Origin: Alphaproteobacteria bacterium
Lineage (GTDB): Bacteria > Pseudomonadota > Alphaproteobacteria > SP197
Direction: 5' to 3'
DNA: 64,000 nt
Assembly: GCA_964291265.2 (NCBI GenBank)
Contig: OZ219746.1
Location: 9,578 to 73,577 of the forward strand
Below are positions 1-32,587 of the stretch, piece after piece. Each line of letters begins with the position of its first letter. The stretch's first letter is position 1. The notes under the pieces are model-generated. The model saw nothing but the letters and a program-made list of their open reading frames with translations, was not told the DNA's origin and ran no database searches. The position numbers were made by a program, and so were the translations under genes.

Positions 1-1
1 C

Positions 2-2890: not shown

Positions 2891-3202
2891 GGGCGCGGGC
2901 GGCGGTCGGCCCGTCCTTGCCATCGTGCGGCGGGTGCGGTGGCGGGGGGCCGCTGCTGTCCTGTCCTGCGTTCCCCGGCGCTTGCGTGCGGGCTGGCCGG
3001 GGTCTTCTGCGGAGCGGGTCCGGGGGGTCTCGCGCCCCAATGGTATTCGGGCATGTCTGCCGATGTAACGGCGGCTTGTCCTACGCCGTCAACCCATTGA
3101 CATAAAGGACTTTACTTTTCTCGGACGTTTTTCCACACGCATTGCTTGACAAGCATTCGCTGATTTGCAAGATGTCCCCGAATCGGTGATGCGGAAGCAC
3201 TC

Positions 3203-5377
3203 ATGGACCAGCGAATCGTCGCCCTGCCGTCGACCACCTTCTCGGGCCGCCGCCTGACCCGCCAGCAGATCGCGGATGCCCAGGAGACCGTGGAGATGTT
3301 TCCCCATGACAGCCGCAACGAGCTGGCGAAGACCATCTGCGAGCATCTGCACTGGAAGACGGCGAAGGGCGCCTACAAGGTCGGGGCCTGCCTCGGGATG
3401 CTGGAGACCCTGGAGCGCTGCGGCATCCTGACCTTGCCGCCCTTGCGCGAGGACCACGTCCGCGACATGACCTGCCCCCCTGCCTGGACCTCGGCCTCGG
3501 ACCCGCAGCCGGAGATCGTGGCGCCGCTGTCGGAACTGTGCCCGCTTCGCGTCGAGCCCGTCACCGACACCGAGGGGCGGCAGCTGTGGAACGCCTTCGT
3601 CGACCGGTATCATTACCTCGGCTACAAGCGCCCCTACGGGGCGCATGTCCGCTACTTCGTCACCGACAGGCAGGGGCGCAAGCTGGGCTGCATCCTGTTC
3701 GAGGCGACAACGAAGACACTTCCCTGCCGGGACCGCTGGATCGGCTGGACGAACCGCAGGCGTGACAGCAAGCGGCACCTGATGACGGTCAATTCAAGGT
3801 ACCTGGTGTTTCCCTGGGTCGTCTCGAAGAACCTTGCGTCCTCGGCCCTGGCCATGGCGACGCGCCGCCTCGCCGACGACTGGGAGCGTCTTCACGGCTG
3901 GCGTCCCGTCCTCATCGAGACCTTCGTCGACGAGACCCGGTTCAAGGCCTCGTGCTACCGTGCGGCCAACTGGCAACGCATCGGTGATACCGCGGGCCGG
4001 GGCAAGTCGCGCAAAGGGGTCTACGTACTGGCGCTTGAGCGGGGTGCTCGCGAGATCCTGCGCTCGGAGAGCGGCGCGGCGAGGAAGAAGCCTGCGACGC
4101 GTGCTGAACGGGGACGGTCCGCCATCGCCGACCGGCGGTTCTCGAAGCGCTGGGAGGCGCTTGTTGCGGCCGCCGTTGCGATTGCGGAACGCGAGGACGC
4201 GCGCTGGCAGAAACGTCGGCGGGTCTTCAACAGCCTGCTGATCATGCTGTTCGTGCTCCGCCTCGTTGCCGCGTCGCGCGGGCAAGGCTACGGGACCACG
4301 CTCAGCGAACTCTGGGAGCATTGCGAGGCCGCAGGCATCGAGCTGCCGCAGGCGGAGCCTCCGGCGGCATCGACGGCCTGCGAGGCGCGGGAGAAGCTCG
4401 ACGAGGCCGCGTTCAAGCGCCTGCACGCGGAGATCCTCGCCCACTGTCCCGAGTGCACGCTGTGGAAGGGTCACAGGACTCTCGCCGTCGACGGCTCGAA
4501 GATCACCCTGCCCAGGGAACTCGCACAGTACGGCTATCGTGTGAGCGACGGCGCCCACTACCCCCAGGGCATGGTCAGCACACTCTACCGGCTCAATGAC
4601 CGCATCCCGATCGACTTCGACCTGTTCGACCACGAGAACGAGCGGGCAGCCGCCCTCGTGCACCTCGACCATGCTGCCGAAGGCGATGTCATCGTCTACG
4701 ACCGGGGCTACTACTCCTTCGCCATGGCCCTCGCTCATCAGGAGCGCAAACTCAACTTCGTGTTCCGCATCCAGAAAGGCGCCAACCCCGTGTTCGACGC
4801 CTTCATCGCCTCCGGCGAGGACGACCGGACCATCACCCTCGACGCCCCCAGGGACGAGACCGCGCTACGCTCGAAGACCCTGCGCGTCCGCCTCGTCAGG
4901 TACCGGTATGCCGACACGGAGTACTACATCGCGACCTCCCTGCTCGACGGCAGCCGCTATCCCGTCCCCGCACTCTCTGATCTCTATCATGCTCGTTGGG
5001 GCGTGGAGGAAATGTACAAGACCGGCAAGTTCCTGATCGAGGCCTTCCACGCCAAGTCCAGGCGCGGCGTCCGCCAGGAACTCTACGCCGCCTTCGTCCT
5101 CATCACCCTCGCCCGCCAGTTCGCGAACCGCTGCGACAACGACATCGACGACGGCGACGACCTGCCGGCCATGCGCACCAACTTCCGCAACAGCCTGCGC
5201 CTCGTCGGCAAGGAGATCGAGGCCATGTTCCTCGCACAGAGCGCCATGGTCGTCCAGTCCGTCAGGCGGATCATGTCCGGGCTCTCGCGCTGCATCCAGC
5301 GCGAAAGGCCCGGGCGCAGCTACGTGCGGCAGTCGAAGCAGCCAAGGAGCAAGTGGCAGAAACGGGTACCCGCCTGA
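3203..5377 (+). CDS. Transposase: N-terminal DUF4338 (DruA-like) domain fused to an IS4-family DDE domain
   Basis: N-terminal half: WNAFVDRYHYLGYKRPYGAHVRYFV...RDRWIGW...VNSRYLVFPWV...LIETFVDETRFKASCYRAANWQRIGDTAGRG, a DUF4338-like motif set. C-terminal half: LAVDGSKITLP...VIVYDRGYYSF...YHARWGVEEMYKTGK, the IS4/DDE_Tnp_1 D-D-E context. A single 724-aa ORF followed by a terminator. Confidence 0.8.
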   Translation: MDQRIVALPSTTFSGRRLTRQQIADAQETVEMFPHDSRNELAKTICEHLHWKTAKGAYKVGACLGMLETLERCGILTLPPLREDHVRDMTCPPAWTSASDPQPEIVAPLSELCPLRVEPVTDTEGRQLWNAFVDRYHYLGYKRPYGAHVRYFVTDRQGRKLGCILFEATTKTLPCRDRWIGWTNRRRDSKRHLMTVNSRYLVFPWVVSKNLASSALAMATRRLADDWERLHGWRPVLIETFVDETRFKASCYRAANWQRIGDTAGRGKSRKGVYVLALERGAREILRSESGAARKKPATRAERGRSAIADRRFSKRWEALVAAAVAIAEREDARWQKRRRVFNSLLIMLFVLRLVAASRGQGYGTTLSELWEHCEAAGIELPQAEPPAASTACEAREKLDEAAFKRLHAEILAHCPECTLWKGHRTLAVDGSKITLPRELAQYGYRVSDGAHYPQGMVSTLYRLNDRIPIDFDLFDHENERAAALVHLDHAAEGDVIVYDRGYYSFAMALAHQERKLNFVFRIQKGANPVFDAFIASGEDDRTITLDAPRDETALRSKTLRVRLVRYRYADTEYYIATSLLDGSRYPVPALSDLYHARWGVEEMYKTGKFLIEAFHAKSRRGVRQELYAAFVLITLARQFANRCDNDIDDGDDLPAMRTNFRNSLRLVGKEIEAMFLAQSAMVVQSVRRIMSGLSRCIQRERPGRSYVRQSKQPRSKWQKRVPA

Positions 5378-5401
5378 CACCAACGCCAGCCGCCAGACAG
5401 G

Positions 5402-5444
5402 CCCCCGGCTTCGGGCAAAACCCGAAGTCGGGGGACTTTTTTAT
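5402..5444 (+). terminator. Rho-independent terminator downstream of the transposase gene
   Basis: cccccggcttcggg / cccgaagtcggggg forms a 14-bp stem with one mismatch and loop caaaa, followed by acttttttat. Confidence 0.7.
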
Positions 5445-5668
5445 CCGAACGCAGGAAAAACTTATCCGAATGCCTTTGTCTCGCGCCCGGCCGTCGGCCG
5501 GCAAAACGGGGTGGAGATCAGGGCTTGCAGCTTTCGTTTCGCAGGCCTATATTGAGCGCCGAGCGTTCGTCGGGGCCGCCTGCGGATGGCCTGCGGATGC
5601 CTCATGCGTGCAAAATCCTAAGGGCCCCTTCACGGGGTTTCTTCCGCAGTCGAAGGGGAGCCTCGACG

Positions 5669-7687
5669 ATGAAACAGACGGAGACACCGATGTACAAGAA
5701 CGTGGCGATGGCCTGCAGCGTGGTCGTACTCGCTTTCGGGCTGGCGGCGTGCAGCAGCAGCAACAAGACGGCCGCCCCGGCTGATCCTCCGGCGGTGGCT
5801 CCGGAGCTCCAGGAGCAGCGGGATAAGGCCAAGGCTGCCGAGACGGCGGCCAAGGCCGCCTCGGACCTCGCGGCCCAGGGCATGGCGGCGGCCGGCGACG
5901 ATCCGGCCAAGATCGGCTCGGAGGCGGCGCAGGCGGCGGTGATGAGCCTCGTGTCCGTCCAGCTTCCCGCGAAGGCGAAGATGTACGCCGACAAGGCCAA
6001 GGCGGCGGCCGATGCGGCGAAGAGAGCCTACGACACGGCGAAGGCGGCATCCGCGAAGGCGGCGGCGGCGACCAGTCTGGCGGCGGCGGCCGAGGCCAGG
6101 CTCGACGCCGAGGCGGCCCGGAAGGAAGCCGAGGCGCAGGCCGAGATCGCCAATGCCCAGGCCAAACTGGCGGTGGATGCGGCCAAGGGGATCGCGTACG
6201 CCGACGGAACCTACACGGTCGGCGCCATGTCGATCACGCCCGGCACAGCGGGGACCACGAGAACCGTCGACGGCAAGTCGGTGACGGTCGGCCTTCTCGG
6301 GTCTGACGACGGCATCGCAAAGAAGACCGTGGCCCGCAAGGATCCCGTGAGCCCATCCACGGACAAGGTTGTGACCACCGACGTGACCCATATGGTGGCT
6401 GACCTTAGGCCCCGCATCCATAACGCCGGCACCGAATACACGGGCCTCACATCCCGGGACACGCCGGCAGGGGGCGTCTTGGGATCGCCGCAGATCAATA
6501 CGGGCCGCAAGATCCGGGTCAGCAACATGTACGATTCGGAGGACGACAAGTCCCGTCTCTGGCTCGTCACGCATTACATGGGCAAGGCATCCGTCGGATT
6601 CTTCTATCGCGAAGAGACCCAAGTCACGGCCACCGTAGACCAGGAACCGGATGCTCCCTACGGCAAGTGGGCGAAGGATGACACCGGTACCGACTATGCG
6701 GGCGGGCCGAAGGTGGTGGAGAAGGCGTCCGGCAACTTCTACCTTGCCACGTCAGGCTCGGTCGAACCCGTCGGGGGCCGGATCTGGAACGGGAGCGCCG
6801 GAACGTTCGACATCTATACGGGCGACGACGAGGAAAAACTTGGAGAAGGCAAGGTCTTCTACATTCAAGACAACCGTAACGACGCGGATGGTGCCCGCAA
6901 TGACCGAAGGACATGGCTGGAACTGGTCGCGACCATCACCAAGCCGGACGGCACGAAGTCGTTCCAGTACAAGATGATCCAGGCTTGGACGGGAGACTAT
7001 CGGGGAGACCCTGACAAGATATCCGTTTCCGACTTTCCGGAATCGATGGCCTACGATCATGTCAATTTCGGCCTGTGGTCGATGCTGAGCGATTCCGGCG
7101 AGAAGCCGAAGGAGCTGGGCATCGCATTCGCCATGGCCAAGCAGGGCGGCAGCATGACCGCCGCCGACGCCATGCCGGCGACCGGCACCGCCACCTACAA
7201 CGGTTCCTGGGCGGCGCATGTTCGTGCGAGGGCCGTCGTCTCGGGCGCCGGCGGCGTCACCACCAACCCTTCTCCGATTACCGAGCAAAGCGGCAACTCG
7301 GTGGTGACGGCGGACTTTGCGAAGAATACCGTCAAGGTCAATCTGCACCAGCTTGCCATGCTTGAGGGCGCGATTTCCGGCAACATGTTCTCGGGAACCA
7401 AGGTCTCCGACGTCAAGGCCAACAAGGGGAACCTGGTCGCCACTGCCGATGGAGCCGGCTTCACGGGCGAGTTCAGCGGTAGCTTCTTCGGCTCTGAGGC
7501 CGAGGAGGTCGGCGGCGTGTTCGACTATACGTCGGAGAAGTTGGTGAAGGGCGAGTTCCGCGGTGCCTTCGGCGGCTCGAAGTTCGGCATGCCGATGGCC
7601 GAGATGATCCCGTCAACGTCGGGTGCCGTCCCGGGTGCTTTGATGAAGGTCAATCGTCGGCTCGATATTCCGGACGTTCCCGAATAG
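5669..7687 (+). CDS. Surface lipoprotein with an Ala-rich coiled-coil-like region and a TbpB-like C-terminal beta-barrel
   Basis: ATG at 5669 is preceded by gaaggggag. Signal peptide plus lipobox MKQTETPMYKNVAMACSVVVLAFGLAAC|SSSN. A long A/K/E-rich stretch follows. C-terminal ...GEFSGSFFGSEAEEVGGVFDY...GEFRGAFGGSK is paralogous to the 2..1078 product. Confidence 0.8.
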   Translation: MKQTETPMYKNVAMACSVVVLAFGLAACSSSNKTAAPADPPAVAPELQEQRDKAKAAETAAKAASDLAAQGMAAAGDDPAKIGSEAAQAAVMSLVSVQLPAKAKMYADKAKAAADAAKRAYDTAKAASAKAAAATSLAAAAEARLDAEAARKEAEAQAEIANAQAKLAVDAAKGIAYADGTYTVGAMSITPGTAGTTRTVDGKSVTVGLLGSDDGIAKKTVARKDPVSPSTDKVVTTDVTHMVADLRPRIHNAGTEYTGLTSRDTPAGGVLGSPQINTGRKIRVSNMYDSEDDKSRLWLVTHYMGKASVGFFYREETQVTATVDQEPDAPYGKWAKDDTGTDYAGGPKVVEKASGNFYLATSGSVEPVGGRIWNGSAGTFDIYTGDDEEKLGEGKVFYIQDNRNDADGARNDRRTWLELVATITKPDGTKSFQYKMIQAWTGDYRGDPDKISVSDFPESMAYDHVNFGLWSMLSDSGEKPKELGIAFAMAKQGGSMTAADAMPATGTATYNGSWAAHVRARAVVSGAGGVTTNPSPITEQSGNSVVTADFAKNTVKVNLHQLAMLEGAISGNMFSGTKVSDVKANKGNLVATADGAGFTGEFSGSFFGSEAEEVGGVFDYTSEKLVKGEFRGAFGGSKFGMPMAEMIPSTSGAVPGALMKVNRRLDIPDVPE

Positions 7688-7768
7688 GCGCCGCCGTCAC
7701 GACCCTGGCGGCCTTGTCTTTTCGGACGCTGGCCGGGCAATCCGTGCATGCCTCGATCTACGGGTTTT

Positions 7769-7797
7769 GGACGAAGGCCGCTTCGCGGCCTTCGTCC
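7769..7797 (+). terminator. Strong GC hairpin (12-bp perfect stem) downstream of the lipoprotein gene, with no U-tract
   Basis: ggacgaaggccg-cttcg-cggccttcgtcc. It directly abuts the 88-bp inverted-repeat copy A. No T-run follows, so terminator function is uncertain. Confidence 0.3.
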
Positions 7798-7884
7798 AAT
7801 AGGACCTGACAACAGGGAAGAAACACGACCCTGACAAAGCGCGGCAAATCGCCGAAATCCCGCCGTTCTATGCAGCCATCAACA
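7797..7884. repeat. 88-bp inverted repeat, copy A (perfect reverse complement of 42316..42403)
   Basis: Base-by-base manual alignment gives caataggacctgacaacagggaagaaacacgaccctgacaaagcgcggcaaatcgccgaaatcccgccgttctatgcagccatcaaca = RC of 42316..42403, 88/88 identical. It contains an orphan ATG (7870) plus 5 codons identical to the start of the integrase relic at 42330. Confidence 0.95.
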
Positions 7885-8146
7885 ACAGTCGCTTGATATC
7901 CCAGGATCGTCGCCCCGGGGTGTTGCAGAACCCATCGCGGAACCTCGAATCTGGATGTTGTCTGTCGGAGCGTTTCGGGAAGGATGGGCGTGGCGCTTTC
8001 GGCCATCTTCCCACAGCCATCCACCGCATCTTCGATGCGCTCTCCGGACACTGCGTGAACCCGAACCCTCAGCGACCAGTTCCGGGCAGCCCTCAGGATT
8101 TGGGTTGACGCTTGCCGGGCGGCGGCGTTGTCCCTATGATGTCCCC

Positions 8147-8428
8147 ATGTCAGAGGCCATCGCGTTCGATGCACACCGCTTCGTCAAGCGCCTGACCGAC
8201 TGCGGCTTCACCGAGCAGCAGGCCGAGACGCTTGCCGACGAGCAGGTCGCCCTGCTCAACGCCAACCTGGCGACGAAGGCCGGCATGGAAGCGATGCGCC
8301 AGGAGACCAGGTCCGGCATCGACGCGGTGCGCCAGGAAAATGCAACCGCCATGGCGAGGGTCGAGACGCGCATGGAGTCGATCAAGTTCGATCTGATGAA
8401 ATGGATGATCGGTCTGTTGATCGCCTAG
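8147..8428 (+). CDS. DUF1640 (CCDC90-like) coiled-coil membrane-anchored protein
   Basis: MSEAIAFDAHRFVKRLTDCGFTEQQAETLADEQVALLNANLATKAGMEAM...FDLMKWMIGLLIA. This is the typical DUF1640 N-terminal motif with a C-terminal hydrophobic tail. Confidence 0.6.
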   Translation: MSEAIAFDAHRFVKRLTDCGFTEQQAETLADEQVALLNANLATKAGMEAMRQETRSGIDAVRQENATAMARVETRMESIKFDLMKWMIGLLIA

Positions 8429-8695
8429 GGTGGGCTGCTCATCGCCCTCGTCAGGTTCCTGTAGAGATCTCGTAGCGGCGTTCGGTCCACAGGCCACCCG
8501 GGCTTCCCCGGAAACAGGATGCGCCACCATGTCCGAGGTCCTCGCCACTGACTGGAAGAACCCGTCGTCGGCGCCGCAAGACCGCGCCGGTGAGCGCACC
8601 GGGTTCGCCGCTGATCCGGACGCCTTCTCGCGCACGGCCAGGGCACAGGCGGAGGATGACGCGATGAAACTCGGCCATGTCGGGGGCATGGACCG

Positions 8696-10000
8696 TTGAA
8701 GCCACCGGCGCATGCAGCCACCAATGGCTGGTACAGCATCCTTCCCCCACCGCCCCGGGCGCAACGTGTCGAGGGCACGGTCCGTGTGCCATGGGCCGTG
8801 GTCGGCGCCGGCTTCACCGGGCTGGCGGCGGCGCGCACGCTGGCCGGCCACCTGCCGGATCAGACGATCGCGCTCATCGAGGCGGAGCGGGTGGGCTTCG
8901 GCGCGTCGGGGAGAAATTCGGGCTTCGTCCTGGACTCCCACTTCATGCCGCAGCGGCTTCCGTTTGCCGATCCGGAACACGCCAGGGCGGCGACCCGTCT
9001 GTGCACCGGCGGCAGGGACATCCTGAAGGGTCTGGTGCGGCGACACCGGATCGCCTGTCACTGGCATGACTGGGGCAAGCTCTGGGTCGCCGGCTCTTCC
9101 GCCGGGGAGGAGGGCCTTCTTCGCCAGCGCCAGGGCAATGATGTGCTGGGTATCCGCCACCAGGTTCTCGATCGCGACGATGTCGAGGCGCTCACCGGGA
9201 CACGCTTCTACAGCGCGGGCCTCAAGGTCGAGGGCACGGCGCTGGTCAACCCGGCGGCGCTGTGCCGGGGCCTTGCCGACACCCTGCCGGCCAACGTCGC
9301 ACTCCATGAAGAGTCCCCGGTTCTCAAGTGCCACAAGGGGAATCCGCACCGGCTCGTGACTCCGGCAGGCGAGGTTGTCGCCGACGGGGTCATCCTCTGC
9401 ACGAACGTCTATTCGCCGTCCCTCGGTGTCGCCCGCCACGCGATGGCGCCCCTTGTTCTCTACGCCAGTCTGACCCGGCCCATGACGCCTCGAGAGACCA
9501 AGCTCGCAGGTGGAGACCGCCGCGGTTTTGGTCTGCTCCCGGCGGCGCGGGGCGGTTCGACCATCCAGCGCACCCCCGAAGGACGGCTGCTTGTCCGCAA
9601 CACCCTGGCATATGGCCCGGCTGCCGCGTCGCAGCCGACGAGGCTGGAGGCGGCACGACTCTGTCATGTCGATTCGATCCGCAAGCGCTGGCCGGCGATC
9701 GCGGACATCGACATCGAGCACACCTGGGGAGGGTGCGTCGGCATCACGCGCAACGACGGCCACATCTTCGGCGCCGTCGGCAATCGGCTGTGGGCGTCGA
9801 TCGGTTGCAACGGTGCGGGAGTATCGCGCGGCACCATGGCCGGTGTTCTCCTTGCCGATCTTGTGGCCGGCCGGGACTCGGACCTGTTGCGCGATCAGCA
9901 ACGCGTTCCCGCACCAGGCTGGATGCCGCCGGAACCCCTGCGCGGCCTGATCGGCCGGAGCCAACTCCGTCAGCACATGGCGGACATGGCCGAACGCTGA
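8696..10000 (+). CDS. FAD-dependent oxidoreductase (DAO family, PuuB-like)
   Basis: N-terminal dinucleotide-binding motif WAVVGAGFTGLAAARTL...IEAERVGFGASGRNSGFV in a 434-aa ORF. The start is a TTG and is uncertain. Confidence 0.7.
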   Translation: MKPPAHAATNGWYSILPPPPRAQRVEGTVRVPWAVVGAGFTGLAAARTLAGHLPDQTIALIEAERVGFGASGRNSGFVLDSHFMPQRLPFADPEHARAATRLCTGGRDILKGLVRRHRIACHWHDWGKLWVAGSSAGEEGLLRQRQGNDVLGIRHQVLDRDDVEALTGTRFYSAGLKVEGTALVNPAALCRGLADTLPANVALHEESPVLKCHKGNPHRLVTPAGEVVADGVILCTNVYSPSLGVARHAMAPLVLYASLTRPMTPRETKLAGGDRRGFGLLPAARGGSTIQRTPEGRLLVRNTLAYGPAAASQPTRLEAARLCHVDSIRKRWPAIADIDIEHTWGGCVGITRNDGHIFGAVGNRLWASIGCNGAGVSRGTMAGVLLADLVAGRDSDLLRDQQRVPAPGWMPPEPLRGLIGRSQLRQHMADMAER

Positions 10001-19031: not shown

Positions 19032-20045
19032 TCAGTGCCTGGGCCTGGCGGCCAGCACGTCATCAAGACTTGGGGCAGCCAGCACCGCCTCCGCCCAGGC
19101 CTCCAGTTCGGCGGCCGACGCGCCGCGGACCCGTTCGCGGACCGCATCCGGCACATCATCGAAGCGCAATTCCAGAAGACGCAGAACAATTCCTGCCTGG
19201 CCTTCCACGCGACCTTCTTCCCGGCCTTCGCTCCGGCCTCGTTCGATTCCCCTCTCGATTCCCTGTTCGACCCAGGTTTGTGCGATCGTGCCCATCAACA
19301 CCTCCCAATGGTCCGGCTTCGTCCGGCGCAAAGACGCCTCCAGCATGGCCGGCGTCAGGCCCTTGTGCTCGGTCATATAGCGCACAATATGGTGCTCGAA
19401 GTCGCTCCCTGCGAGCAGCCCGTCCATGATCACGTCGAGAAGATCGGGCGGCACCTCCTCGGCAAAGACAAACCTGAGCGCCAGAAGAGCGGACCGCACC
19501 TCGGGCGAGGCCGACAGCCGGTCCGGCGCCATCTCCCCGAGGTTGTGCACCACATAGGCGAACTCCCTCAACGAACGACTCCAGCCCCTCGGGCGCGTCG
19601 ATCATGTTCGGTACCGAGCGCTCCGCCGTCCAGCGGCCCCGGCCATGGTAGAAGACCAGCGGGATGATCATCGGCAGCCTTTTCCTGCCGCCCTCGATCT
19701 CGCGCCGCCAGATGTTGACCATGTATCCCAGGAGCTGGAGCGGCGTCGCGGCATCGACCTGGCTCTTGTGTTCGAGCAGCACGTAGAGGCTTAGCATCCT
19801 GGCCGCTCTTCAGCCTCACCCGGAACAACGCATCGCACCGGTTGGCATGGGCGGCCTTGTCGACGAAACTGCCTCGAGCGCCTCCGGCCGCGCCTCGGGG
19901 TCGAGGAGGTCAGCCACCTTCCGCGGCAGGTAGTCGTCGAGCGGCGAAGCGGCACGGAGACCAGCGCCCGGAACAGCGCATCGTGCCGGTTCTCCGGAAG
20001 TCTCACCGAGCGAGACCCCGGCGTTTCAACGGGCATCACGCTCAC
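19032..20045 (-). pseudogene. Rpn-family (YhgA-like, PD-(D/E)XK) recombination-promoting nuclease/putative transposase, copy 1, broken into three frames
   Basis: Pieces: MSVMPVETPGSRSVRLPENRHDALFRALV.., then ..DALFRVRLKSGQDAK, then MLSLYVLLEHKSQVDAATPLQLLGYMVNIWRRE...LVFYHGRGRW, then ..EFAYVVHNLGEM...EQGIERGIERGRSEGREEGRVEG...LRFDDVP... Confidence 0.8.
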
Positions 20046-20155
20046 GGGCCGGAAGAGGGAAGGTGATCGTCATGGTGGCACCCTACGCCGATGAGCACCC
20101 GGTCGGCAATCGCGGCGCCTGACCCGGGGCCTGCCAGGCGTCAAGACCTCGATGG
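19036..20155. repeat. Direct repeat, copy 1 of an approx 1.1-1.4 kb duplication (partner 29558..30932)
   Basis: Homology starts at tgcctgggcctggcggccagcac and ends at ...caagacctcgatgg in both copies, in the same orientation. Identity is high but imperfect by eye. The copies differ by tandem-repeat expansions in copy 2. Confidence 0.85.
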
Positions 20156-24245: not shown

Positions 24246-24716
24246 TTAGCGATCCGCGCATCGTTGTCGATTTAGGAACTCACGGCGTTGCTTGCGGCTG
24301 CCGGCAAATGGATACAATAACCGCTGTCCTGTTGCCTTAGTTGGCAGAATGTCCTTGTCTTTGAAGTCGTCACGGAGTTTGCCGTCATTTGAGCAAAGAA
24401 CTTTGGCGCCGCTTGCAAGTGCTAATGACAAGATATGTAAATCATTTGATCTTGGGGTCTTTTGAGCCAATTGACTGTCAGTAATATAAAGCTGGTCCGC
24501 TGAGATTTTTCGAAGATGTCCTCCTTGGTCATACCGTCGGATAAGATCCATAACGGCGCTATTGTTTCGAAGTTCTGTGAAATACTGCCCAGCGCTAGAG
24601 ACCGCCAGTATCCCGTGCCTACTGCCAATCCACGATAGAAACAAATTGTCACCTTCGCCGCGTCGTTTCACCAGTACAGGAAATGAATCTGCATCAACGA
24701 TAGCGACCACGCACAT
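24246..24716 (-). CDS. PIN-like nuclease domain protein; fifth and last gene of the Ub-like operon
   Basis: MCVVAIVDADSF... supplies the N-terminal acidic residue after strand 1. ...SNDLHILSLALASGAKVLCSNDGKL supplies the C-terminal PIN-type D..H..A....A..L.T.D motif. The gene starts 13 nt after the ATPase stop. AT-rich codon usage like the rest of the operon. Confidence 0.6.
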   Translation of the reverse strand: MCVVAIVDADSFPVLVKRRGEGDNLFLSWIGSRHGILAVSSAGQYFTELRNNSAVMDLIRRYDQGGHLRKISADQLYITDSQLAQKTPRSNDLHILSLALASGAKVLCSNDGKLRDDFKDKDILPTKATGQRLLYPFAGSRKQRREFLNRQRCADR

Positions 24717-24729
24717 TTGCTTTACCTAT

Positions 24730-25992
24730 CTACTTGAGGCCCAGTAGGCGCTCTGTTTCTGTCAAGAAAAACTCTCGATAGGTACTAGGTGGATCCAACA
24801 CATTTCCCATTGAATCGACCGAGATATTGTGAATTCTGGTCTCGGTGTTATCTTCATAGTTTTCAAAATACAGGATCACAAGGTCTTCTGGTTGCAACAC
24901 TTGTTGCAATACACATAATCTGAAACGATCGACGATATGATCACTGTGGGTTTCAATAATGTAATCGTGTGGTCCTTCGGCCATATATTGGGCCAATTTA
25001 GCCTGTGCCACTGGATGAACGTGGACTTCTGGTTGTTGCAGCAAAAAAATACTTGGTGTGTCAGTTACAGCTATGGCGTGTATAAAAGGGAGTATTGAAT
25101 GCACACCGTAACCCACATCAATTAGATTATGGGTGCCAGCGGCCGTTGTGACCAAAACATCCGTTGCTTCGCCCAAGTCGATTTCAGTCAACGTGATGTC
25201 GCTCCACAAACCTAATGCCGTGCCGGCCTGTGCGATCAGTGAGCGTTCCGAAGAATTGCTTAAATACACCGGGGGCTCCTTGTAACTGCGCAGCCTGGGA
25301 GGCGCATGCGGCTCAGGAGCTTTAACGTGAAAACTAGGATGTGCGGGCAATGGCATCTCGGAACGGAAGAAGTTAATGAATTTACCGAAGTTAATGATTT
25401 CTTCCGATGTGCTTGGTACACATTCTCGTTTTGCAAAAATTGTGCTATCCGCATTGTATGGGAAAAAACCGTGACGCACGTTACGCGATAACCAAGTAGA
25501 AATGGGTACAAAGGATATTTCCGCCCACTTCATAGAAAAATCAAAATTTGGACCATGAAACACCAAACGTTTATTTTTACTGCTGTCACCATTATAGATT
25601 GACATTTCGATGTGCGCAGACGAAGCATCCTTTGCAGCAAAGGAAAACTCGGTGCGTGTTTCATAAGGCCGTCCCTTATTGTCGCGTCCGAAGGAAAACA
25701 TGGCTGATGAGTGAATGTGATCGTCATATTGACCAGTAATTGTAAAGTTGGAAGAGCCCAAACGGGCTATCGAGTCGTATTCACCCATGGAAAATGGAGG
25801 TTGGTCAAAGATGTGATTGTCAGGCAAGTCAACTAAATTGGAGAGGTGAGCGAATGCATTGAAGCAGCCCAGAAAAGTGGATTTACCGACGCTGTTTTCA
25901 CCAACAAGCAAGGTGATGCGACCCAGACGTGCGTGTTGGGGAGAGTTGAAACGGCGAATATTCTGGAGAGACATTTCGCTTATACGAGGCAT
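24730..25992 (-). CDS. ABC/AAA_15-AAA_21-like P-loop ATPase (OLD/Septu-PtuA-like fold class); fourth gene of the operon
   Basis: Walker A LLVGENSVGKSTFLGCF, Walker B-like IFLLQQPEVHVHP, H-loop-like IIETHSDHIVDR. The ATG at 25992 overlaps the E1 stop codon (TAATG). Confidence 0.75.
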   Translation of the reverse strand: MPRISEMSLQNIRRFNSPQHARLGRITLLVGENSVGKSTFLGCFNAFAHLSNLVDLPDNHIFDQPPFSMGEYDSIARLGSSNFTITGQYDDHIHSSAMFSFGRDNKGRPYETRTEFSFAAKDASSAHIEMSIYNGDSSKNKRLVFHGPNFDFSMKWAEISFVPISTWLSRNVRHGFFPYNADSTIFAKRECVPSTSEEIINFGKFINFFRSEMPLPAHPSFHVKAPEPHAPPRLRSYKEPPVYLSNSSERSLIAQAGTALGLWSDITLTEIDLGEATDVLVTTAAGTHNLIDVGYGVHSILPFIHAIAVTDTPSIFLLQQPEVHVHPVAQAKLAQYMAEGPHDYIIETHSDHIVDRFRLCVLQQVLQPEDLVILYFENYEDNTETRIHNISVDSMGNVLDPPSTYREFFLTETERLLGLK

Positions 25993-27479
25993 TAGCGATC
26001 TCCTGAAGACGGCAGAAAACGTGTCAGCAGATTGCCGCACTTTATGAGAAAACGACTAATGAAAGAGTCTACAGCTTTCGTTTCGTGCGGTGCATTAAGG
26101 AGGAATGGGTACTTGAACTGATCGCCGAGGGCTGTCTTTCCGACGACGGAACAGTGTTCATTGCACTCCAGAGCTTCCACGTCAAGGCGATTCGGTATCA
26201 TACTGTAGTGCTGTCGACCCGCGCGATCTGGCCACCAAGTGTCAGCTATCACAAGTCGTATCATCGCGACGACCATTGAGGTCGCAAGGTTTGCGCAGAA
26301 CGGGAAGACGTTCTGGTTGCGTGGCTCATGCTCGGATTCAGTGAGGTTGTGGACATATGATGGATCATCCAGAGAGCCGTCGACATCGAGAACAACATCG
26401 GAACTGGTATATTGGCCGTCACATCGCAGACAACGAAACATCGGACCGATGGTCGTTACACTCCAAGCCGCCTGGCCGAGTGTGCCGTCCGGCTTGTTGT
26501 CGATGAACACGCCACCGGATATAACGGGAATACAATGTGCATAGGCGACGTGGTTCAAAAGATCCTTGGGAAGCGGGCGATCCACGGCGGAGAATAGGAT
26601 ATCGCAATCAAGAACGGCGGTGAAGGCGCGACTGTCTTGAATGGGCAAGGCGAACGTTTGGATAGAAAAGCCAGCGGCGGTCGCCGATCGGCTTGCCTGC
26701 TGGGCGACGAGTTCGACTTTTAATGAGCCGACATCGTTTTCGGAGGCGTACATCAAGCGGTCGAGGTTGTGGGTCTCTATCCGATCCGGATCGATGATCG
26801 TGACCCTTTCCATGCCCATCCTTGCCAAGGATTCGGCAATCACGCAGCCCACGCTTCCGACTCCGACGATACCGAAATGAAGACCGGTGAGGTCTCGTTG
26901 GCGTTTGATACCCCAAGTGTCGATCGTACGCTGTAGAAATCTGCGTCGCTCACCTGCAGGGCGCTGTTTAAACGTGACGCGAAAGTGGCGTCCGACGATG
27001 CGAACCCTTTCGCACCATGTTCGATTGAAGGTTTCGCCGTCCCAGTTCCAAAAACGAGCGCTCCAACTGTGGTCCGTGCCAAGCGTCAATCCAACGAGAG
27101 GCAGTCCGGTTGCACGAGCGGCAGGTGAGATTCGATCTCGTTCGGCGACGATGTCGAGCACGCTCATGTCCTGCCAGCCGTCGGTAAAGTGGCTGTGCAT
27201 GAATGCCAGCCCGGCCCCCCGAAGGATGGCAATTCGTGTCGCACGGGTCAAGTAAGTTGGTTCGAAACTCGTGCCACCATGCAAGTGTCGTTCACCTTCA
27301 CCCGGGAGCAATATCTCGAATACGATGGCAGCTTTTCTGCTGGCCCCCGTTGAGGGACGCCACAGGGCAAAGCAAAGTTCCTCCTGCATGTATCCGGCGT
27401 TCACGTGCCGGAGCAGATGAGCGGATGCGCTGTCGTGCGCCTCTTGGGTCAGAACAGTATCGAAGATCAAATCTGGCAC
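25992..27479 (-). CDS. JAB/JAMM-like N-terminal domain fused to a ThiF/MoeB-type E1 adenylation domain
   Basis: N-terminus: ..QEELCFALW...AFMHSHFTDGWQDMSVLD is a JAMM-like E...HxH...S..D arrangement, with a spacer one residue longer than canonical. Centre: LHFGIVGVGSVGCVIAESLARMGMERVTIIDPDRIETHNLDRL is a Rossmann ATP-binding motif of E1/ThiF type. Cys clusters CLRC and CNEHC are present. GTG start overlaps the E2-like gene by 13 nt. Confidence 0.8.
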   Translation of the reverse strand: MPDLIFDTVLTQEAHDSASAHLLRHVNAGYMQEELCFALWRPSTGASRKAAIVFEILLPGEGERHLHGGTSFEPTYLTRATRIAILRGAGLAFMHSHFTDGWQDMSVLDIVAERDRISPAARATGLPLVGLTLGTDHSWSARFWNWDGETFNRTWCERVRIVGRHFRVTFKQRPAGERRRFLQRTIDTWGIKRQRDLTGLHFGIVGVGSVGCVIAESLARMGMERVTIIDPDRIETHNLDRLMYASENDVGSLKVELVAQQASRSATAAGFSIQTFALPIQDSRAFTAVLDCDILFSAVDRPLPKDLLNHVAYAHCIPVISGGVFIDNKPDGTLGQAAWSVTTIGPMFRCLRCDGQYTSSDVVLDVDGSLDDPSYVHNLTESEHEPRNQNVFPFCANLATSMVVAMIRLVIADTWWPDRAGRQHYSMIPNRLDVEALECNEHCSVVGKTALGDQFKYPFLLNAPHETKAVDSFISRFLIKCGNLLTRFLPSSGDR

Positions 27480-27847
27480 CAGAAACGAAGAAGATGTCTA
27501 ATAAGGAATGTTTTCATGTTCCTTTCCGAAGCTGGGATAGAATCCCAGAAATCACTGGGTGGTACGCTGAAGGCTTTCCAATGGTGATTGTCATAGGTGA
27601 ATGATGAATGCACAGGAAGTTTCGCATTCGGGAGGTCAGCAACATAGATAAAATGTGGTGGATAATCGGGATAACTGTCTTCCTGGAAGCCGATTGCGAT
27701 GGTGAAAAATTGATCCTTGTATCTTCCTGTTGGAACTGATTGGGTCAGCGTAACGACTGTTTGCTGAATAAAGCCGTCTGCGGATACAATTTGCGGTTCG
27801 TGTCCCAGCTCTGCAAGCTCGGCACAGATTAAATCGATAGGCTTCAT
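27467..27847 (-). CDS. E2/UBC-fold-like (RWD/UEV-like) protein; second gene of the operon
   Basis: 126 aa. ..GFQEDSYPDYPPHFIYVADLPNAKLP.. resembles the UBC/RWD YPxxPP flap followed by an (H)PN-like turn. No Cys is present where the E2 catalytic Cys is expected. The start ATG overlaps the Ubl stop (ATGA). Confidence 0.55.
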   Translation of the reverse strand: MKPIDLICAELAELGHEPQIVSADGFIQQTVVTLTQSVPTGRYKDQFFTIAIGFQEDSYPDYPPHFIYVADLPNAKLPVHSSFTYDNHHWKAFSVPPSDFWDSIPASERNMKTFLIRHLLRFWCQI

Positions 27848-28326
27848 GGATCTGGAGCAAATGCCACGGGGGTTGCCCCGGAGTGTACCGCCAAGAATTC
27901 ATCGTCATTCGTAATATCGACAATGTCGATCAAGTTGCGATATTTTATACCGGTATTGATGTTTTCAAGGATGTAGCTGTTGAGTTGGTTGAGGTCGATG
28001 CTGGCGGACTTCCCGGCAGCTCGGAGGATGTTTTTTACGGAGAGGGTCGCATTAGTCGTTGTTTGTTGCTCTCCATTGACCTTGTAGTGAATCACCGTGT
28101 CAAGGGTCGGCTTTGAATCATGGTCCCTTTTTTTTGTCGTAACGCGGTCGCCGGAGTGAATGTCGATATTCTGCTTGGGATCGAGATGTTCGGTGCCGCC
28201 TTGAGAAATCAAGAGAAAATGGTCTGGGGACAAGCCAGCGATAGCAAGGACTTCTGCAACGGTTAGGGAGACCTTGCGAGCGGAGTGTGGTTTGTCGTCT
28301 ATGAAGAACTCAATGGAGTCTGCCAT
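27844..28326 (-). CDS. Tandem beta-grasp ('multiubiquitin'-type) ubiquitin-like protein, 160 aa; first gene of the operon
   Basis: ATG at 28326 is preceded by aagaggataac. There are two approx 70-aa units with parallel endings, ..NIDIHSGDRV and ..FLAVHSGATP. The second HSG is followed by a 10-aa tail (ATPVAFAPDP). Confidence 0.7.
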   Translation of the reverse strand: MADSIEFFIDDKPHSARKVSLTVAEVLAIAGLSPDHFLLISQGGTEHLDPKQNIDIHSGDRVTTKKRDHDSKPTLDTVIHYKVNGEQQTTTNATLSVKNILRAAGKSASIDLNQLNSYILENINTGIKYRNLIDIVDITNDDEFLAVHSGATPVAFAPDP

Positions 28327-28445
28327 GTTATCCTCTTTGGCATTAGGCAAAAAGATGTTGCAAGCAGGACGGGGTTGGCTGGCTTGTCCACTTTCTACTA
28401 TGTCACTACATCGTTTAGGTCGAAGGATCAAGTGATGGCGTCTGA

Positions 28446-28473
28446 ATTCTAGAGCGAGGGGTAGAAATGTCAA
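28446..28473 (-). promoter_or_regulatory. Sigma-70-like promoter candidate for the Ub-like operon
   Basis: On the minus strand: TTGACA (28473..28468), 16-nt spacer, TAGAAT (28451..28446), about 120 nt upstream of the Ubl ATG. Confidence 0.45.
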
Positions 28474-29556: not shown

Positions 29557-30817
29557 CTGCCTGGGCCTGGCGGCCAGCACATCATCAAGACTTGGGGCGG
29601 CCAGCACCGCCTCCGCCCAGGCTTCCAGTTCGGCGGCCGACGCGCCGCGCACCCGCTCGCGGAACGCATCCGGCACATCACCGAAGCGCAAGGACAGTTG
29701 ACGAAGAAGAAGTTCCGCGAGGGCCTCGCTCCGGCCTCGTTCAAGTCCCCTCTCGAGTCTCTCGGCTCTTCCTCTCTCGATACCCTCGGCTCTTCCCCTC
29801 TCGATACCCTCGGCTCGTCCTCTCTCGATTCCCTCGGCTCGTCCTCTCTCGATACCCTCGGCTCGTCCTCTCTCGATTCCCTCGGCTCTTCCCCTCTCGA
29901 TACCCTCGGCTCTTCCCCTCTCGATACCCTCGGCTCTTCCCCTCTCGATACCCTCGGCTCTTCCCCTCTCGATACCCTCGGCTCTTCCCTGTTCGACCCA
30001 GGTTTGTGCGATCGTGCCCATCAACACCTCCCAATGGTCCGGCTTCGTCCGGCGCAAAGACGCCTCCAGCATGGCCGGCGTCAGGCCCTTGTGCTCGGTC
30101 ATGTAGCGCACAATATGGTGCTCGAAGTCGCTCCCTGCAAGCAGCCCGTCCATGATCACGTCGAGAAGATCGGGCGGTACCTCCTCGGCAAAGGCAAACC
30201 TGAGCGCCAGAAGAGCGGACCGCACCTCGGGCGAGGTCGACGGCCGGTCCGGCGCCATCTCCCCGAGGTCGTGCACCACATAGGCGAACTCCCTGACGAA
30301 CGACTTCAGCTTCTCGGGCGCGTCGATCATCTTCAGCACCGAGCGCGCCGCCTTCCAGCGCCCCCGGCCGTGATAGAAGACCAGGGGGATGATCGCCGGC
30401 AGCTTGATGTCGTTCCCGCCGCCCTCGCTCTTGCTCCGCTCGCTCTTGCTCCGCTCGATCTCGCGCCGCCAGATGTTGACCATGTATCCCAGGAGCTGGA
30501 GCGGCGTCGCGGCGTCGACGTAGCTCTTGTGTTCGAGCAGCACGTAGAGGCTTAGCATCTTTGCCGTCCTTCAATCTCACCCGGAACAGCGCATCGCACT
30601 GGGTGGTACGGGCGGCCTTGTCGACGAAACTCTCCCCAACCGCCTCGAACGGCGCCTCGGGATCGAGGAGTTCAGCCACCTTCCGCGGCAGGTAGTCGGT
30701 GAGCAGAGAAGCGGCACGGGACGGTTCGGAGACCAGTGCCCGGAACAGCGTATCGTGTCGATTCACCGGAAGTCTCACCGAGCGAGACCCCGGCGTTTCA
30801 ACGGGCATCGTGCTCAC
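29551..30817 (-). pseudogene. Rpn-family (YhgA-like, PD-(D/E)XK) nuclease/putative transposase, copy 2, split into two frames
   Basis: N-terminal 85 aa (MSTMPVETPGSRSVRLPVNRHDTLFRALV...CDALFRVRLKDGKDAK) are in one frame. MLSLYVLLEHKSYVD...(335 aa) is in the +1 frame. The break is at the same position as in copy 1. Confidence 0.8.
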
Positions 30818-30932
30818 GGGTTGGAAGGGGGAAGGTGTTCGTCATGGCGGCACCCTACGCCGAACAGCACCAGGGCGGCAATCGCGGCGCCTGACCCGGG
30901 GTGAGGCCTGCCAGACGTCAAGACCTCGATGG
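29558..30932. repeat. Direct repeat, copy 2 of the approx 1.1-1.4 kb duplication (partner 19036..20155)
   Basis: See copy 1. Copy 2 is longer because of a 24-bp tandem array and a 15-bp duplication (SKSERSKSE). Confidence 0.85.
29749..29990. repeat. 24-bp tandem repeat, about 10 units, in frame within Rpn copy 2 (encodes (GRAEGIER)n)
   Basis: The unit ctctcgataccctcggctcttccc is repeated with minor variants (t/c, tcc/ccc). The protein reads RAEGIERG x9 plus RAERLERG. Copy 1 has only about 3 degenerate units at the same place. Confidence 0.9.
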
Positions 30933-31347: not shown

Positions 31348-31815
31348 ATGACTGACGTGTTGCTGTCGAACGATGAGCTCAACCGACACCGATTGGCCTT
31401 GAAGCGGGTGAGGAATCCCAATGCCCGTTGGCGGGCACAACCCGGACGGCACAAACAGCGGAATTTCAATGCCGTAACGGAAGACGGGGCGGTCTACCGG
31501 ATCTACCAACGGCAGGATCTGGATGACCATCTGGACTTCTCGTGCGGCTTGGTGCTGACGCGGTGCCGCGGCAAGCCGTTGAGCTTGGTTCGCTACAACG
31601 GGGCGAGTCACGTACACGTGAAGATCCGCTATGCTTGTCATGTTCATCGTGCTACGGCCGAGGCACTCGCGGCCGGGAGGAAAGTCGACAGCCACGCCGA
31701 AGGAACGGATCGATACAGGACCGTGGAGGGAGCGCTTGCGTGCCTGATGGAAGATTGTGGCGTGGAGGGTCTTTCCGCGAATCATGACGAGCTGGACTTG
31801 TTCGATGGCGCTTGA
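31348..31815 (+). CDS. Hypothetical protein (155 aa), first gene of a two-gene cassette
   Basis: Intact ORF whose stop overlaps the next gene's start by 11 nt. I recognise no motif; it is His/Cys-containing (..YNGASHVHVKIRYACHVHRATAEAL..). Confidence 0.45.
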   Translation: MTDVLLSNDELNRHRLALKRVRNPNARWRAQPGRHKQRNFNAVTEDGAVYRIYQRQDLDDHLDFSCGLVLTRCRGKPLSLVRYNGASHVHVKIRYACHVHRATAEALAAGRKVDSHAEGTDRYRTVEGALACLMEDCGVEGLSANHDELDLFDGA

Positions 31816-32587
31816 TCATGTGCAACTGGAAAGGCTGCTGTGCGAGCGCCTGTGCGCAGAGGTCAGGCTTCACCGGCGCGAGGACGATGTGCTGATGATG
31901 GAATCGCCATTCACCTTTCCGGATGGCGACCACTTCCCCATCTACTTGTCCGAAACGGCGGCCGGAGGCGTGAAACTCAGCGATCGCGGTCACACCCTGA
32001 TGCATCTGAGCTACGAGCATGACGTGAAGTTGTTCTACGAAGGCGCGCGCGCGTCTCTTCGTGAGCAAATCGTGCGTGAGAGCGGCATTGATGAAGACGA
32101 GGGCATCTTCTCCATCGAGACGCCGCTGGACCAGGTGGCGGGCACGCTGTTCAGGTTCGGGCAGGCATTGACGAAGATCCATGACCTGACGTTCCTGAGC
32201 CGAGAGAGGAGCGCCTTGACGTTCGATGAGGACCTGTGCGAGCTGGTCTTCGCCATCCTCGACGAGGAAGTCGTCGAGAGGGGCTACATACCGCCTGAGG
32301 TTCCGGACGCCAGACACTATCCGGTGGACTACCGTTTTGAGGGGAAGGACGGGATGTCGGTGTTCCTCTACGGGATTCCGGGCCGTGACAAGGCGCGGTT
32401 GAAGACAATCATGCTGTCGCATTTTCTGCTTCACCGTGTGCCTTTCGAGTCGGTCCTCGTTTTTGCAAATCAGCAGGAGATACCGAGACTCGACCTCGCG
32501 CGGCTGACCAATGTTGCCGGAACCGCGGTCGCCTCGCTCGAGGCGGAAGACGATCTGCGCCGAAAGCTCGAACGCCTTGCTGCGTGA
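31805..32587 (+). CDS. DUF1828/DUF1829-like protein (260 aa)
   Basis: ..MMESPFTFPDGDHFPIYLSETAAGGVKLSDRGHTLMHLSY.. resembles the DUF1828 N-terminal signature. ..VDYRFEGKDGMSVFLYGI..ARLKTIMLSHFLL.. resembles the DUF1829-like C-terminus. Assignment from memory of the motifs only. Confidence 0.5.
   Translation: MALDHVQLERLLCERLCAEVRLHRREDDVLMMESPFTFPDGDHFPIYLSETAAGGVKLSDRGHTLMHLSYEHDVKLFYEGARASLREQIVRESGIDEDEGIFSIETPLDQVAGTLFRFGQALTKIHDLTFLSRERSALTFDEDLCELVFAILDEEVVERGYIPPEVPDARHYPVDYRFEGKDGMSVFLYGIPGRDKARLKTIMLSHFLLHRVPFESVLVFANQQEIPRLDLARLTNVAGTAVASLEAEDDLRRKLERLAA

Follow-up and report, generated by a model that had tools for sequence, protein, structure and literature searches.

The window analysed here, a 64,000-nucleotide (nt) stretch of contig OZ219746.1 from an alphaproteobacterium, carries on its minus strand five consecutive genes encoding a tandem ubiquitin-like protein (Ubl), an E2-like protein, a fusion of a JAB peptidase with an E1 enzyme (JAB-E1), an ABC-type ATPase, and a PIN-fold nuclease. 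The question raised by this locus is whether a ubiquitin-like conjugation core and an ATPase–nuclease pair, placed within one transcription unit, work as one system, and, if so, what this system is for. The answer proposed here, to which a probability of about 0.5 is given, is a composite conflict operon in which a core of the Bub/6E type is combined with an ATPase–PIN cassette captured once, and in which conjugation acts on, or upstream of, the ATPase–PIN pair. The components of this reading are not equally firm. The composition of the operon and its modular origin are held with high confidence, and a role in defence, most likely against phages, is probable. Direct biochemical control of the ATPase–PIN pair by conjugation, which would prime, license, or restrain the effector, is proposed by analogy and tentatively, at somewhat less than even odds.

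Relatives of both halves of the operon are already known. Operons with JAB-E1 fusions, multiple Ubl domains, and Cys-less RWD-like E2 domains were first predicted as “6e” operons, and these E2 domains were read as inactive (Iyer et al., 2006). The 6e operons were later renamed Bub, and JAB processing and Tyr/Ser oxyester chemistry were shown for them (Ye, Gong, Chambers & Corbett, 2024; PMC11601596). In the biochemically reconstituted Bub pathway, BubCD cleaves BubAB, a Ubl–E2 fusion; BubB is a demonstrated Ser-type E2 with an S-x-H/Asp catalytic arrangement, the crossover Tyr of BubCD is Y370, the Bub Ubl consists of 1–3 beta-grasp domains and ends in a C-terminal Gly, and BubE, a DUF6527 serine protease, is reported in all Bub operons (PMC11601596). 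Neither targets nor, so far, a phage phenotype were reported by the discoverers (PMC11601596). Bacterial multi-domain Ubls were also shown to be able to form filaments (PMC11601603). As for the second half, NsnB–NsnC of the Menshen system consists of an ABC ATPase with a DUF3696 tail and a PIN adaptor that is itself inactive and carries a toxin domain (Millman, 2022; PMC12065111). In HEC-03, an ABC ATPase is paired with a VapC-like PIN protein, and both genes are required for the protection against phages that the system gives to E. coli (Payne et al., 2024, bioRxiv 10.1101/2024.01.29.577857).

The five open reading frames and their overlapping or nearly abutting junctions were found as the original prediction, made from the letters of the sequence, had described them. 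The TGA stop codon of the Ubl gene and the start codon of the E2 gene lie in a common ATGA, the E2 and JAB-E1 genes overlap by 13 nt if the latter starts at GTG (by 4 nt if at TTG), the E1 stop codon and the ATPase start codon are joined in TAATG, and the ATPase gene is separated from the PIN gene by a 13-nt gap. The motifs quoted in the prediction (YPDYPPH; HSH...S..D; GVGSVG...D.D.IETHNLDRL; GENSVGKST; ETHSDH; SNDLHILSLALASGAKVLCSND) are all present in the operon products, except for the HSG ends ascribed to the Ubl units, discussed below. The claimed AT-rich composition, unlike that of the flanks, was confirmed: the GC content of the five-gene island is 47–54% vs. ~65% in the flanks. The low-GC island is fully occupied by the five operon genes, the DNA similarity with related loci spans exactly positions 24246–28438 of the window, and no attachment-site repeats were found at the island edges, the only repeats further out being larger ones formed by Rpn genes. 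The operon is a horizontally mobile block, a low-GC island inside a genome of ~65% GC. The sigma-70-type promoter candidate expected upstream (TTGACA-16-TAGAAT) was located, with 11 of 12 positions matching, and its −35 (CTTGACAC) and −10 (TCTAGGAT/TAGAAT) boxes are kept in loci L001, L008, L011, and L087 from other hosts. The leader that follows is conserved across hosts in blocks (TTGATCC...AACGATGTAGC...TTGCAA). The conservation of both boxes and the ~110-nt leader in other hosts indicates that the transcription unit travels as one mobile block. For the leader RNA, neither an Rfam match nor a sufficiently convincing conserved fold was found. Since none of the five genes encodes a regulator, the leader may serve as the operator of a regulator whose gene lies outside the operon.

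The genome scan, made with one genome per species, a pattern pre-filter, and tblastn confirmation, yielded 138 relatives of E1, 80 of which were retrieved (L007–L086). All 80 of these E1-bearing loci come from metagenome-assembled genomes (MAGs), belonging to at least 10 phyla. The juxtaposition of the five genes goes beyond chance, as the order Ubl-E2-JAB/E1-ATPase-PIN recurs colinearly in 58 of 83 related loci; all five genes are detectable in ~64–68 loci. The distances between genes recur as well: −4 between Ubl and E2 in 26 of 63 loci, −13 or −4 between E2 and E1 in 79 of 81, −1 or −4 between E1 and ATPase, i.e., at the boundary between the two halves, in 42 of 63, and +8 to +14 between ATPase and PIN in most loci. 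The neighbourhood of the ATPase and PIN homologues, which the original prediction had named as the place where a chance association would become visible, gives the same picture, the pair co-occurring with Ubl genes in ~60 loci. No additional conserved gene was found in the homologous loci.

Each half of the operon also occurs alone. Sister clade B comprises 18 loci (L068, L070–L086; E1 identity 47–50%), which hold a single-unit Ubl of ~78 amino acids (aa), E2, and JAB-E1 at about positions 6370–9500 of each locus and are devoid of the ATPase–PIN pair. In 17 of the 18, a convergent gene of ~340 aa, with weak matches to DUF2971 and to the PADLOC model PDC-S31, overlaps the E1 gene with its 3′ end; this DUF2971/PDC-S31-like gene provides the same conjugation core with an alternative partner. 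Standalone ATPase–PIN pairs were found in ~75 metagenome loci (within L089–L166), from which Ubl, E2, and E1 are absent. The standalone ATPases are more distant (27–47% identity), carry a Q-Q Walker B, and match NsnB (1e-38 to 1e-43) and also PDC-M55A and HEC-03B in PADLOC. A PIN homologue lies directly downstream of them (E 1e-17 to 1e-31), begins with MC(V/I)I(I/V)D, and ends in a Cys-containing tail. No third conserved gene was found beside these pairs, and their neighbours are unrelated housekeeping genes. Of 8 weak relatives of the ATPase on viral contigs, 2 are accompanied by a PIN gene, and Ubl or E1 genes accompany none of them. In a neighbour-joining tree with midpoint rooting and without support values, the 64 linked ATPases form one clade exclusive of the 65 standalone ones. 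The Spearman co-divergence, calculated from pairwise divergence, is 0.70 for E1–ATPase and 0.71 for E2–ATPase, vs. 0.68 for E1–E2. The simplest history compatible with these comparisons would be that a Bub-like core captured a free-standing ATPase–PIN cassette once, and that the whole unit then spread.

A similar distribution of genes could result from two independent defence modules that are merely co-transcribed, the Ubl cascade tagging proteins of the invader, much as those of phage tails are tagged by Bil, the ATPase–PIN pair sensing and responding separately, and their linkage doing no more than securing joint inheritance and expression. This explanation is unlikely, although it ranks second behind regulatory coupling. 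It agrees with the wide occurrence of the ATPase–PIN pair alone, by which the pair should be self-sufficient (HEC-03 works as a two-gene system), with the conjugation core of clade B that exists without the pair, with the fact that no conserved acceptor lysine was found in the ATPase or PIN besides the Walker A Lys, and with the frequent clustering of defence systems. However, E1 and ATPase are joined by an overlap of 1–4 nt in the majority of loci, which represent at least 10 phyla, and the tree indicates that, within the linked clade, the pair was captured once and then neither lost nor exchanged. Moreover, the ATPase co-diverges with E1 and E2 as tightly as E1 does with E2, and BubE is missing, its slot being filled by the ATPase–PIN pair or the DUF2971-like gene. 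Regulation of the effector pair by the conjugation core is favoured here because the ATPase–PIN pair is self-sufficient elsewhere.

The closest solved structure to JAB-E1 is that of Citrobacter BubCD. A profile built from 30 homologues aligns continuously to BubCD residues 66–320, from JAB into the adenylation core (E 6.7e-21), and in this alignment H95, H97, S106, and D109 sit on the zinc-site residues of BubCD. The profile of the JAB domain alone gave only E = 2 with the BubCD JAB domain, a discrepancy settled by the full-length profile. All 84 family members share E33, H95, H97, S106, and D109; the alignment and these invariant residues bear out the JAMM-like JAB domain called in the original prediction. 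The ThiF-type E1 is equally well founded, with Pfam ThiF matching residues 184–413 at 2e-30. Its motifs are G206xGxxG211, D230, N238-L-D-R241, D300, C350xxC353, Y357, Y375, and C439xxxC443, and the nucleotide-binding and Arg-finger motifs, D300, and both Cys pairs are invariant in the family. Between C353 and C439 no Cys is conserved, and Y357 and Y375 are invariant. PADLOC models of Cap2 (“E1-E2”) match across the adenylation core only. By comparison with MoeB and ThiF, the Cys pairs of the operon E1 and Cys292 of its “LDCD” look structural, not catalytic, and the catalytic Cys expected in E1 was not recovered: the conserved Cys residues are the two CxxC-type pairs and that of “LDCD”. With E1 cysteines that look structural and no conserved Cys in E2, oxyester chemistry through Tyr and Ser, as in Bub, is more likely.

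The Ubl consists of two genuinely repeated halves (hhalign probability 98.2%, E 2e-13), and Multi_ubiq and DUF348 are matched in 14 and 8 of 38 members, respectively, in all cases below threshold; together these results agree with a tandem Ubl. The proposal that both units end in HSG did not hold, since in the profile–profile alignment of the halves TND of unit 2 stands opposite the first HSG, and conservation at the C-terminus is found in the motif G-x-TPVA. All 64 Ubl sequences have V154 and A155. The gene stops right after TPVA in about two-thirds of the homologues, the others adding 2–8 variable residues, and in 6 of ~64 homologues the Ubl is fused in frame to E2. Because the homologous genes end at TPVA, in such tails, or in E2 fusions, as if JAB trims there, the mature, reactive C-terminus is most likely Ala155, and not Gly150, previously suggested as the conjugated residue.

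The E2-like protein has no match in Pfam, NCBIfam, or PADLOC, and belongs to a small family, with 60 representative clusters in a set of 1.84 billion proteins. Searches against Protein Data Bank (PDB) sequences with family profiles or single sequences of E2, Ubl, and PIN returned spurious hits only (SETD3, de novo TIM barrels, winged helix-turn-helix proteins), and structure prediction was therefore needed. The AlphaFold2 models of E2 and PIN were built on shallow alignments of 33–37 sequences with at least 46% identity. For the E2 model (predicted local distance difference test score, pLDDT, 93.5), the best full-length Foldseek match is BubB (9eae_C; probability 0.89, template modelling (TM) score 0.50, E not significant), followed by ubiquitin E2 variant (UEV) domains of TSG101 and canonical E2s; these matches point to the proposed E2/RWD-like fold, with weak statistics. 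Two distant members, being Ubl–E2 fusions, give near-full-length, sub-threshold matches to Multi_ubiq and Prok-E2_E, the Pfam families defining the 6E lineage. In 82 sequences from both clades, no Cys is conserved in E2, and S94 is invariant.

The missing Cys allows the E2-like protein to be seen as a non-catalytic RWD/UEV-type adaptor that binds Ubl, a role proposed for the E2 domains of 6e operons (Iyer et al., 2006), with conjugation carried out by E1 only, or with Ubl that is only adenylated or serves as a non-covalent scaffold or filament regulating the ATPase–PIN pair. This would be in line with the presence of TSG101 UEV, which is non-catalytic, among the structural matches, with the early view of 6e E2 domains as inactive, and with the filament formation known for multi-domain Ubls. 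An adaptor is nevertheless improbable, as Ser94, H65, D102, and H118 are all invariant in both clades, suggesting a catalytic or binding site, the closest structure is that of a demonstrated Ser-type E2, and the intact JAB and E1 sites, together with the conserved processing site, imply real activation of the Ubl C-terminus.

In the ATPase, the following motifs are present: Walker A G31..GK37, R77, D292-V-G-x-G296, LLQ319-Q320-P-E322, and the H-loop ETH349SDH. AAA_15/AAA_21 are matched in 43 of 43 family members, in agreement with the predicted ABC-type ATPase, and DUF3696 in 12 of 43 (best E 1.2e-5). The affinity to OLD/Septu-like ATPases had to be revised: the closest PADLOC models are NsnB of Menshen (7.5e-34), PDC-M55A (3e-23), and HEC-03B (6.6e-21), with weaker matches to AriA, PtuA, and GajA. 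The acidic pair of Walker B is replaced by the invariant Q319-Q320, followed by P-E322, and Q-Q is also present in all standalone relatives. The PIN model (pLDDT 86) shows a single domain, with a second domain absent. Its Foldseek matches include AF0591 (E 1e-3) and Rickettsia VapC2 (E 1.9e-3), both with probability 1.0, and M. tuberculosis VapCs with TM scores up to 0.59, the overall probability being 0.9–1.0. PIN-clan Pfam families are matched in 21 of 47 members, and the operon PIN protein matches no PADLOC model, NsnC and HEC-03 included. The acidic residues D8, E48, D92, D111, and D117 are kept in >90% of linked and standalone homologues. The structural matches and the conserved acidic residues uphold the call of a PIN-like nuclease, and, with its acidic active site retained, the protein is a putatively active one.

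The original prediction allowed for the five-gene architecture being already catalogued under some name. No named system or paper combining these modules was found in the literature searched, and no system-level match was obtained in PADLOC; as far as can be told, the operon is uncatalogued. It belongs to none of Bub, Menshen, or HEC-03, departing from each in at least one defining feature. With Type I Bub it shares the JAB domain at the N-terminus of a ThiF-type E1, and it further resembles Bub in the multi-domain Ubl, the E2 that lacks Cys, contains an invariant Ser, and has BubB as the top full-length structural match, the Ubl–E2 fusions of some homologues, and the invariant Tyr residues, with no conserved Cys, after the first CxxC of E1. 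Unlike in Bub, DUF6527/BubE is neither among the five genes nor conserved in homologous loci, the window encodes Ubl and E2 in two genes that overlap at ATGA, the conserved Ubl end (TPVA) has Ala in place of Gly, the Multi_ubiq/Prok-E2_E matches are below threshold, and an ATPase–PIN pair is attached. In E2, S94, H65, D102, and H118 are invariant, but they are not spaced as in the S-x-H of BubB, and the two structures superpose weakly (TM 0.50). Menshen is resembled in the best ATPase model, in the PIN-fold partner directly downstream, and in NsnB-like details of the ATPase, i.e., the Q-loop Arg, the GxG signature, the non-canonical Walker B, and the DUF3696 tail. However, NsnA (ParB/DUF262) is absent from the operon and homologous loci, and the operon PIN, with its acidic residues retained, lacks a toxin domain at the C-terminus; the PIN of NsnC is an inactive adaptor. 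With HEC-03 the operon has in common the adjacent genes of an ABC ATPase and a VapC-like PIN, the ATPase matching HEC-03B, although it scores higher on NsnB and PDC-M55A, the PIN has no PADLOC match, and HEC-03 contains no Ubl, E2, or E1. Since both halves have named relatives (Bub from 2024; Menshen NsnBC and HEC-03), the novelty of the operon is somewhat lower.

Other systems resemble the operon in logic or in parts. In Type II CBASS, an E1/E2-type ligase and a JAB peptidase (Cap2/Cap3) regulate a self-sufficient effector core, which is the logic proposed here. Cap2, however, is a Cys-using E2-E1 fusion that conjugates the CD-NTase itself, a separate Ubl being absent, whereas the operon has E2 as a separate gene, no CD-NTase, and no cyclic-nucleotide signalling. 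In PARIS (AriA/AriB) and Septu (PtuA/PtuB), oligomers of an ABC ATPase keep the partner nuclease sequestered or gated, but the nucleases are Toprim and HNH, respectively, and a conjugation module is absent from both. Bil (BilABCD) also combines Ubl, E2, E1, and a JAB peptidase and acts in anti-phage defence. In the operon, a single adenylation domain is fused to JAB and E2 has no Cys, whereas the E1 of Bil is eukaryote-like and contains a catalytic Cys domain, its E2 is of the Cys type, its JAB stands alone, and the C-terminus is a Gly; a nuclease effector is lacking in Bil.

On this basis, a mechanism can be proposed. The catalytic motifs of JAB, E1, the ATPase P-loop, and PIN are intact, and the linkage of the five genes is obligate. 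The JAB domain would trim the Ubl precursor after TPVA, exposing Ala155, as suggested by the gene ends, the fusions, and the BubCD precedent. Ala155 would then be adenylated by the ThiF-type E1, and, by analogy with Bub, Ubl would be relayed as oxyesters via a Tyr of the crossover region (Y375 or Y357) to Ser94 of E2 and conjugated to a target. An oligomer of the ATPase may hold or gate PIN via its DUF3696-like tail, as proposed for NsnB–NsnC and seen in PARIS/Septu. The ATPase may work as an ATP-binding switch rather than a motor, as the invariant Q-Q replacing the Walker B acidic pair suggests. PIN, once released or activated, would cleave RNA and abort infection. Conjugation is placed on, or upstream of, the ATPase–PIN complex and could tune it as Cap2/Cap3 tune the CBASS core. 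A more specific version, in which the cysteine-free cascade conjugates Ubl to the ATPase–PIN complex or to a bound phage trigger and thereby releases or licenses the PIN RNase, is doubtful. If true, this version would provide the first effector output for any Bub-like pathway, a prokaryotic parallel to the ubiquitin-dependent activation of eukaryotic immune effectors, and an exchangeable effector slot occupied by the ATPase–PIN pair, a DUF2971-like protein, or BubE.

Several observations weigh against a composite operon regulated by conjugation. At the core, the alignment with BubCD ends at residue 331, before the catalytic Y370, so the crossover Tyr lies outside it; the statistics of the E2 fold match are weak (best Foldseek E 0.14), E2 does not show the S-x-H/Asp arrangement known from Type I BubB, and the matches behind the putative beta-grasp fold of Ubl are all sub-threshold. 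At the effector side, N-terminal Cys2 and the C-terminal tail of PIN (R132/P136/F147/C153), considered as features specific to the linked clade, were rejected as such, being shared by standalone PINs, and an acceptor lysine is missing, as mentioned above. As to the history, the single capture is read from a tree of which the rooting and topology are not backed by support values, and the fusion of the halves into one operon and their co-divergence also fit two independent co-inherited systems. Finally, a phage phenotype has so far been found for no Bub operon.

The defence role was weighed against other functions in sponge-associated bacteria, namely stress-responsive RNA turnover, an addiction module of a mobile element, or interaction with the ubiquitin system of the host. 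Many of the MAGs carrying this E1 bear names typical for symbionts of marine sponges (Poriferihabitaceae, Palauibacter, Latescibacterota, Binatia, Dehalococcoidia, SB0661/SB0662 bins), which suggests horizontal spread within one habitat, the habitat being read from the MAG names only. A function outside anti-phage immunity would fit this origin of the 80 genome loci, the small mobile unit formed by the island, and the record of Bub operons with respect to phages. It is very improbable, however, as the ATPase best matches the defence models NsnB, PDC-M55A, and HEC-03B, an ATPase and PIN architecture was shown experimentally to be defensive (HEC-03), and in two Holophagales MAGs (L005 and L006, positions 1–6913) the operon adjoins CRISPR-Cas (Cas1, Cas4, Cas3, and GSU0053/GSU0054-type genes). 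The latter neighbourhood is a defence-island context; the PIN gene in these two loci is uncalled but detectable by tblastn.

A Bub-like core long fused to a pair of a validated defensive type is strong contextual evidence for an immune role, and the operon may help to reveal what Bub-like pathways do. With it, PIN toxicity or RNA cleavage becomes available as a concrete read-out, the candidate substrates for these pathways are narrowed to a short list, and Ubl cascades come into view as exchangeable front ends, able to serve various effectors. The family adds a C-terminal alanine acceptor motif (TPVA), and curated models miss its E2 and Ubl families. The putative defence operon is spread over at least 10 phyla, with many of the MAGs, by name, from a marine-sponge habitat. 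The coordinates of its features are collected in Table 1.

Table 1. Features of the five-gene operon and its upstream region (positions in the window; all on the minus strand).
Feature	Position	Strand	Details
Sigma-70-type promoter candidate (TTGACA-16-TAGAAT)	28446..28473	−	11/12 positions match
Leader, ~110 nt	28327..28445	−	ends in AGGAGGA ribosome-binding site; sequence conserved across hosts
Ubl gene	28326..27844	−	160 aa, ATG start
Ubl units	27844..28326	−	unit 1, ~residues 1-72; unit 2, ~77-155; ends G150-x-T-P-V-A155
Variable Ubl C-terminal extension FAPDP	27847..27861	−	predicted to be removed by JAB
E2-like gene	27847..27467	−	126 aa
Cysteine-less E2/UEV-fold protein	27467..27847	−	invariant Y59, P63, P64, H65, W90, S94, W101, D102, H118, R121
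Ser94 codon of E2	27566-27568	−	invariant Ser
JAB-E1 fusion gene	start 27479 (GTG) or 27470 (TTG), end 25992	−	495 or 492 aa
JAB/JAMM metallopeptidase domain	26970..27479	−	~residues 1-170; E33, H95-x-H97, S106, D109
ThiF-type E1 adenylation domain	25992..26930	−	~residues 184-495; motifs in the text
ABC ATPase gene	25992..24730	−	420 aa
NsnB/HEC-03-like ABC ATPase	24730..25992	−	420 aa; DUF3696-like C-terminal tail
PIN gene	24716..24246	−	156 aa
PIN-fold nuclease	24246..24716	−	156 aa; D8, E48, D92, D111, D117

The surroundings of the island show features of their own. A direct repeat of ~1.1 kb is present at 19036–20155 and 29558–30932, with 85–96% identity and ~10.7 kb between the copies, which are two paralogous Rpn/YhgA-like genes (Pfam Transposase_31 and DUF4351). 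They bracket a tetratricopeptide repeat (TPR) gene, an EamA transporter gene, and the five-gene island, and could promote recombination or loss of the whole bracketed segment. In the right-hand Rpn-like gene, a 24-nt tandem repeat of roughly a dozen units (10 overlapping 120-nt windows) is located at 29697–30032 and encodes (GRAEGIER)n, an expansion that the left copy does not have. Just past this gene, a DUF1828-domain protein (5.8e-19) and small open reading frames are encoded at 31757–32587.

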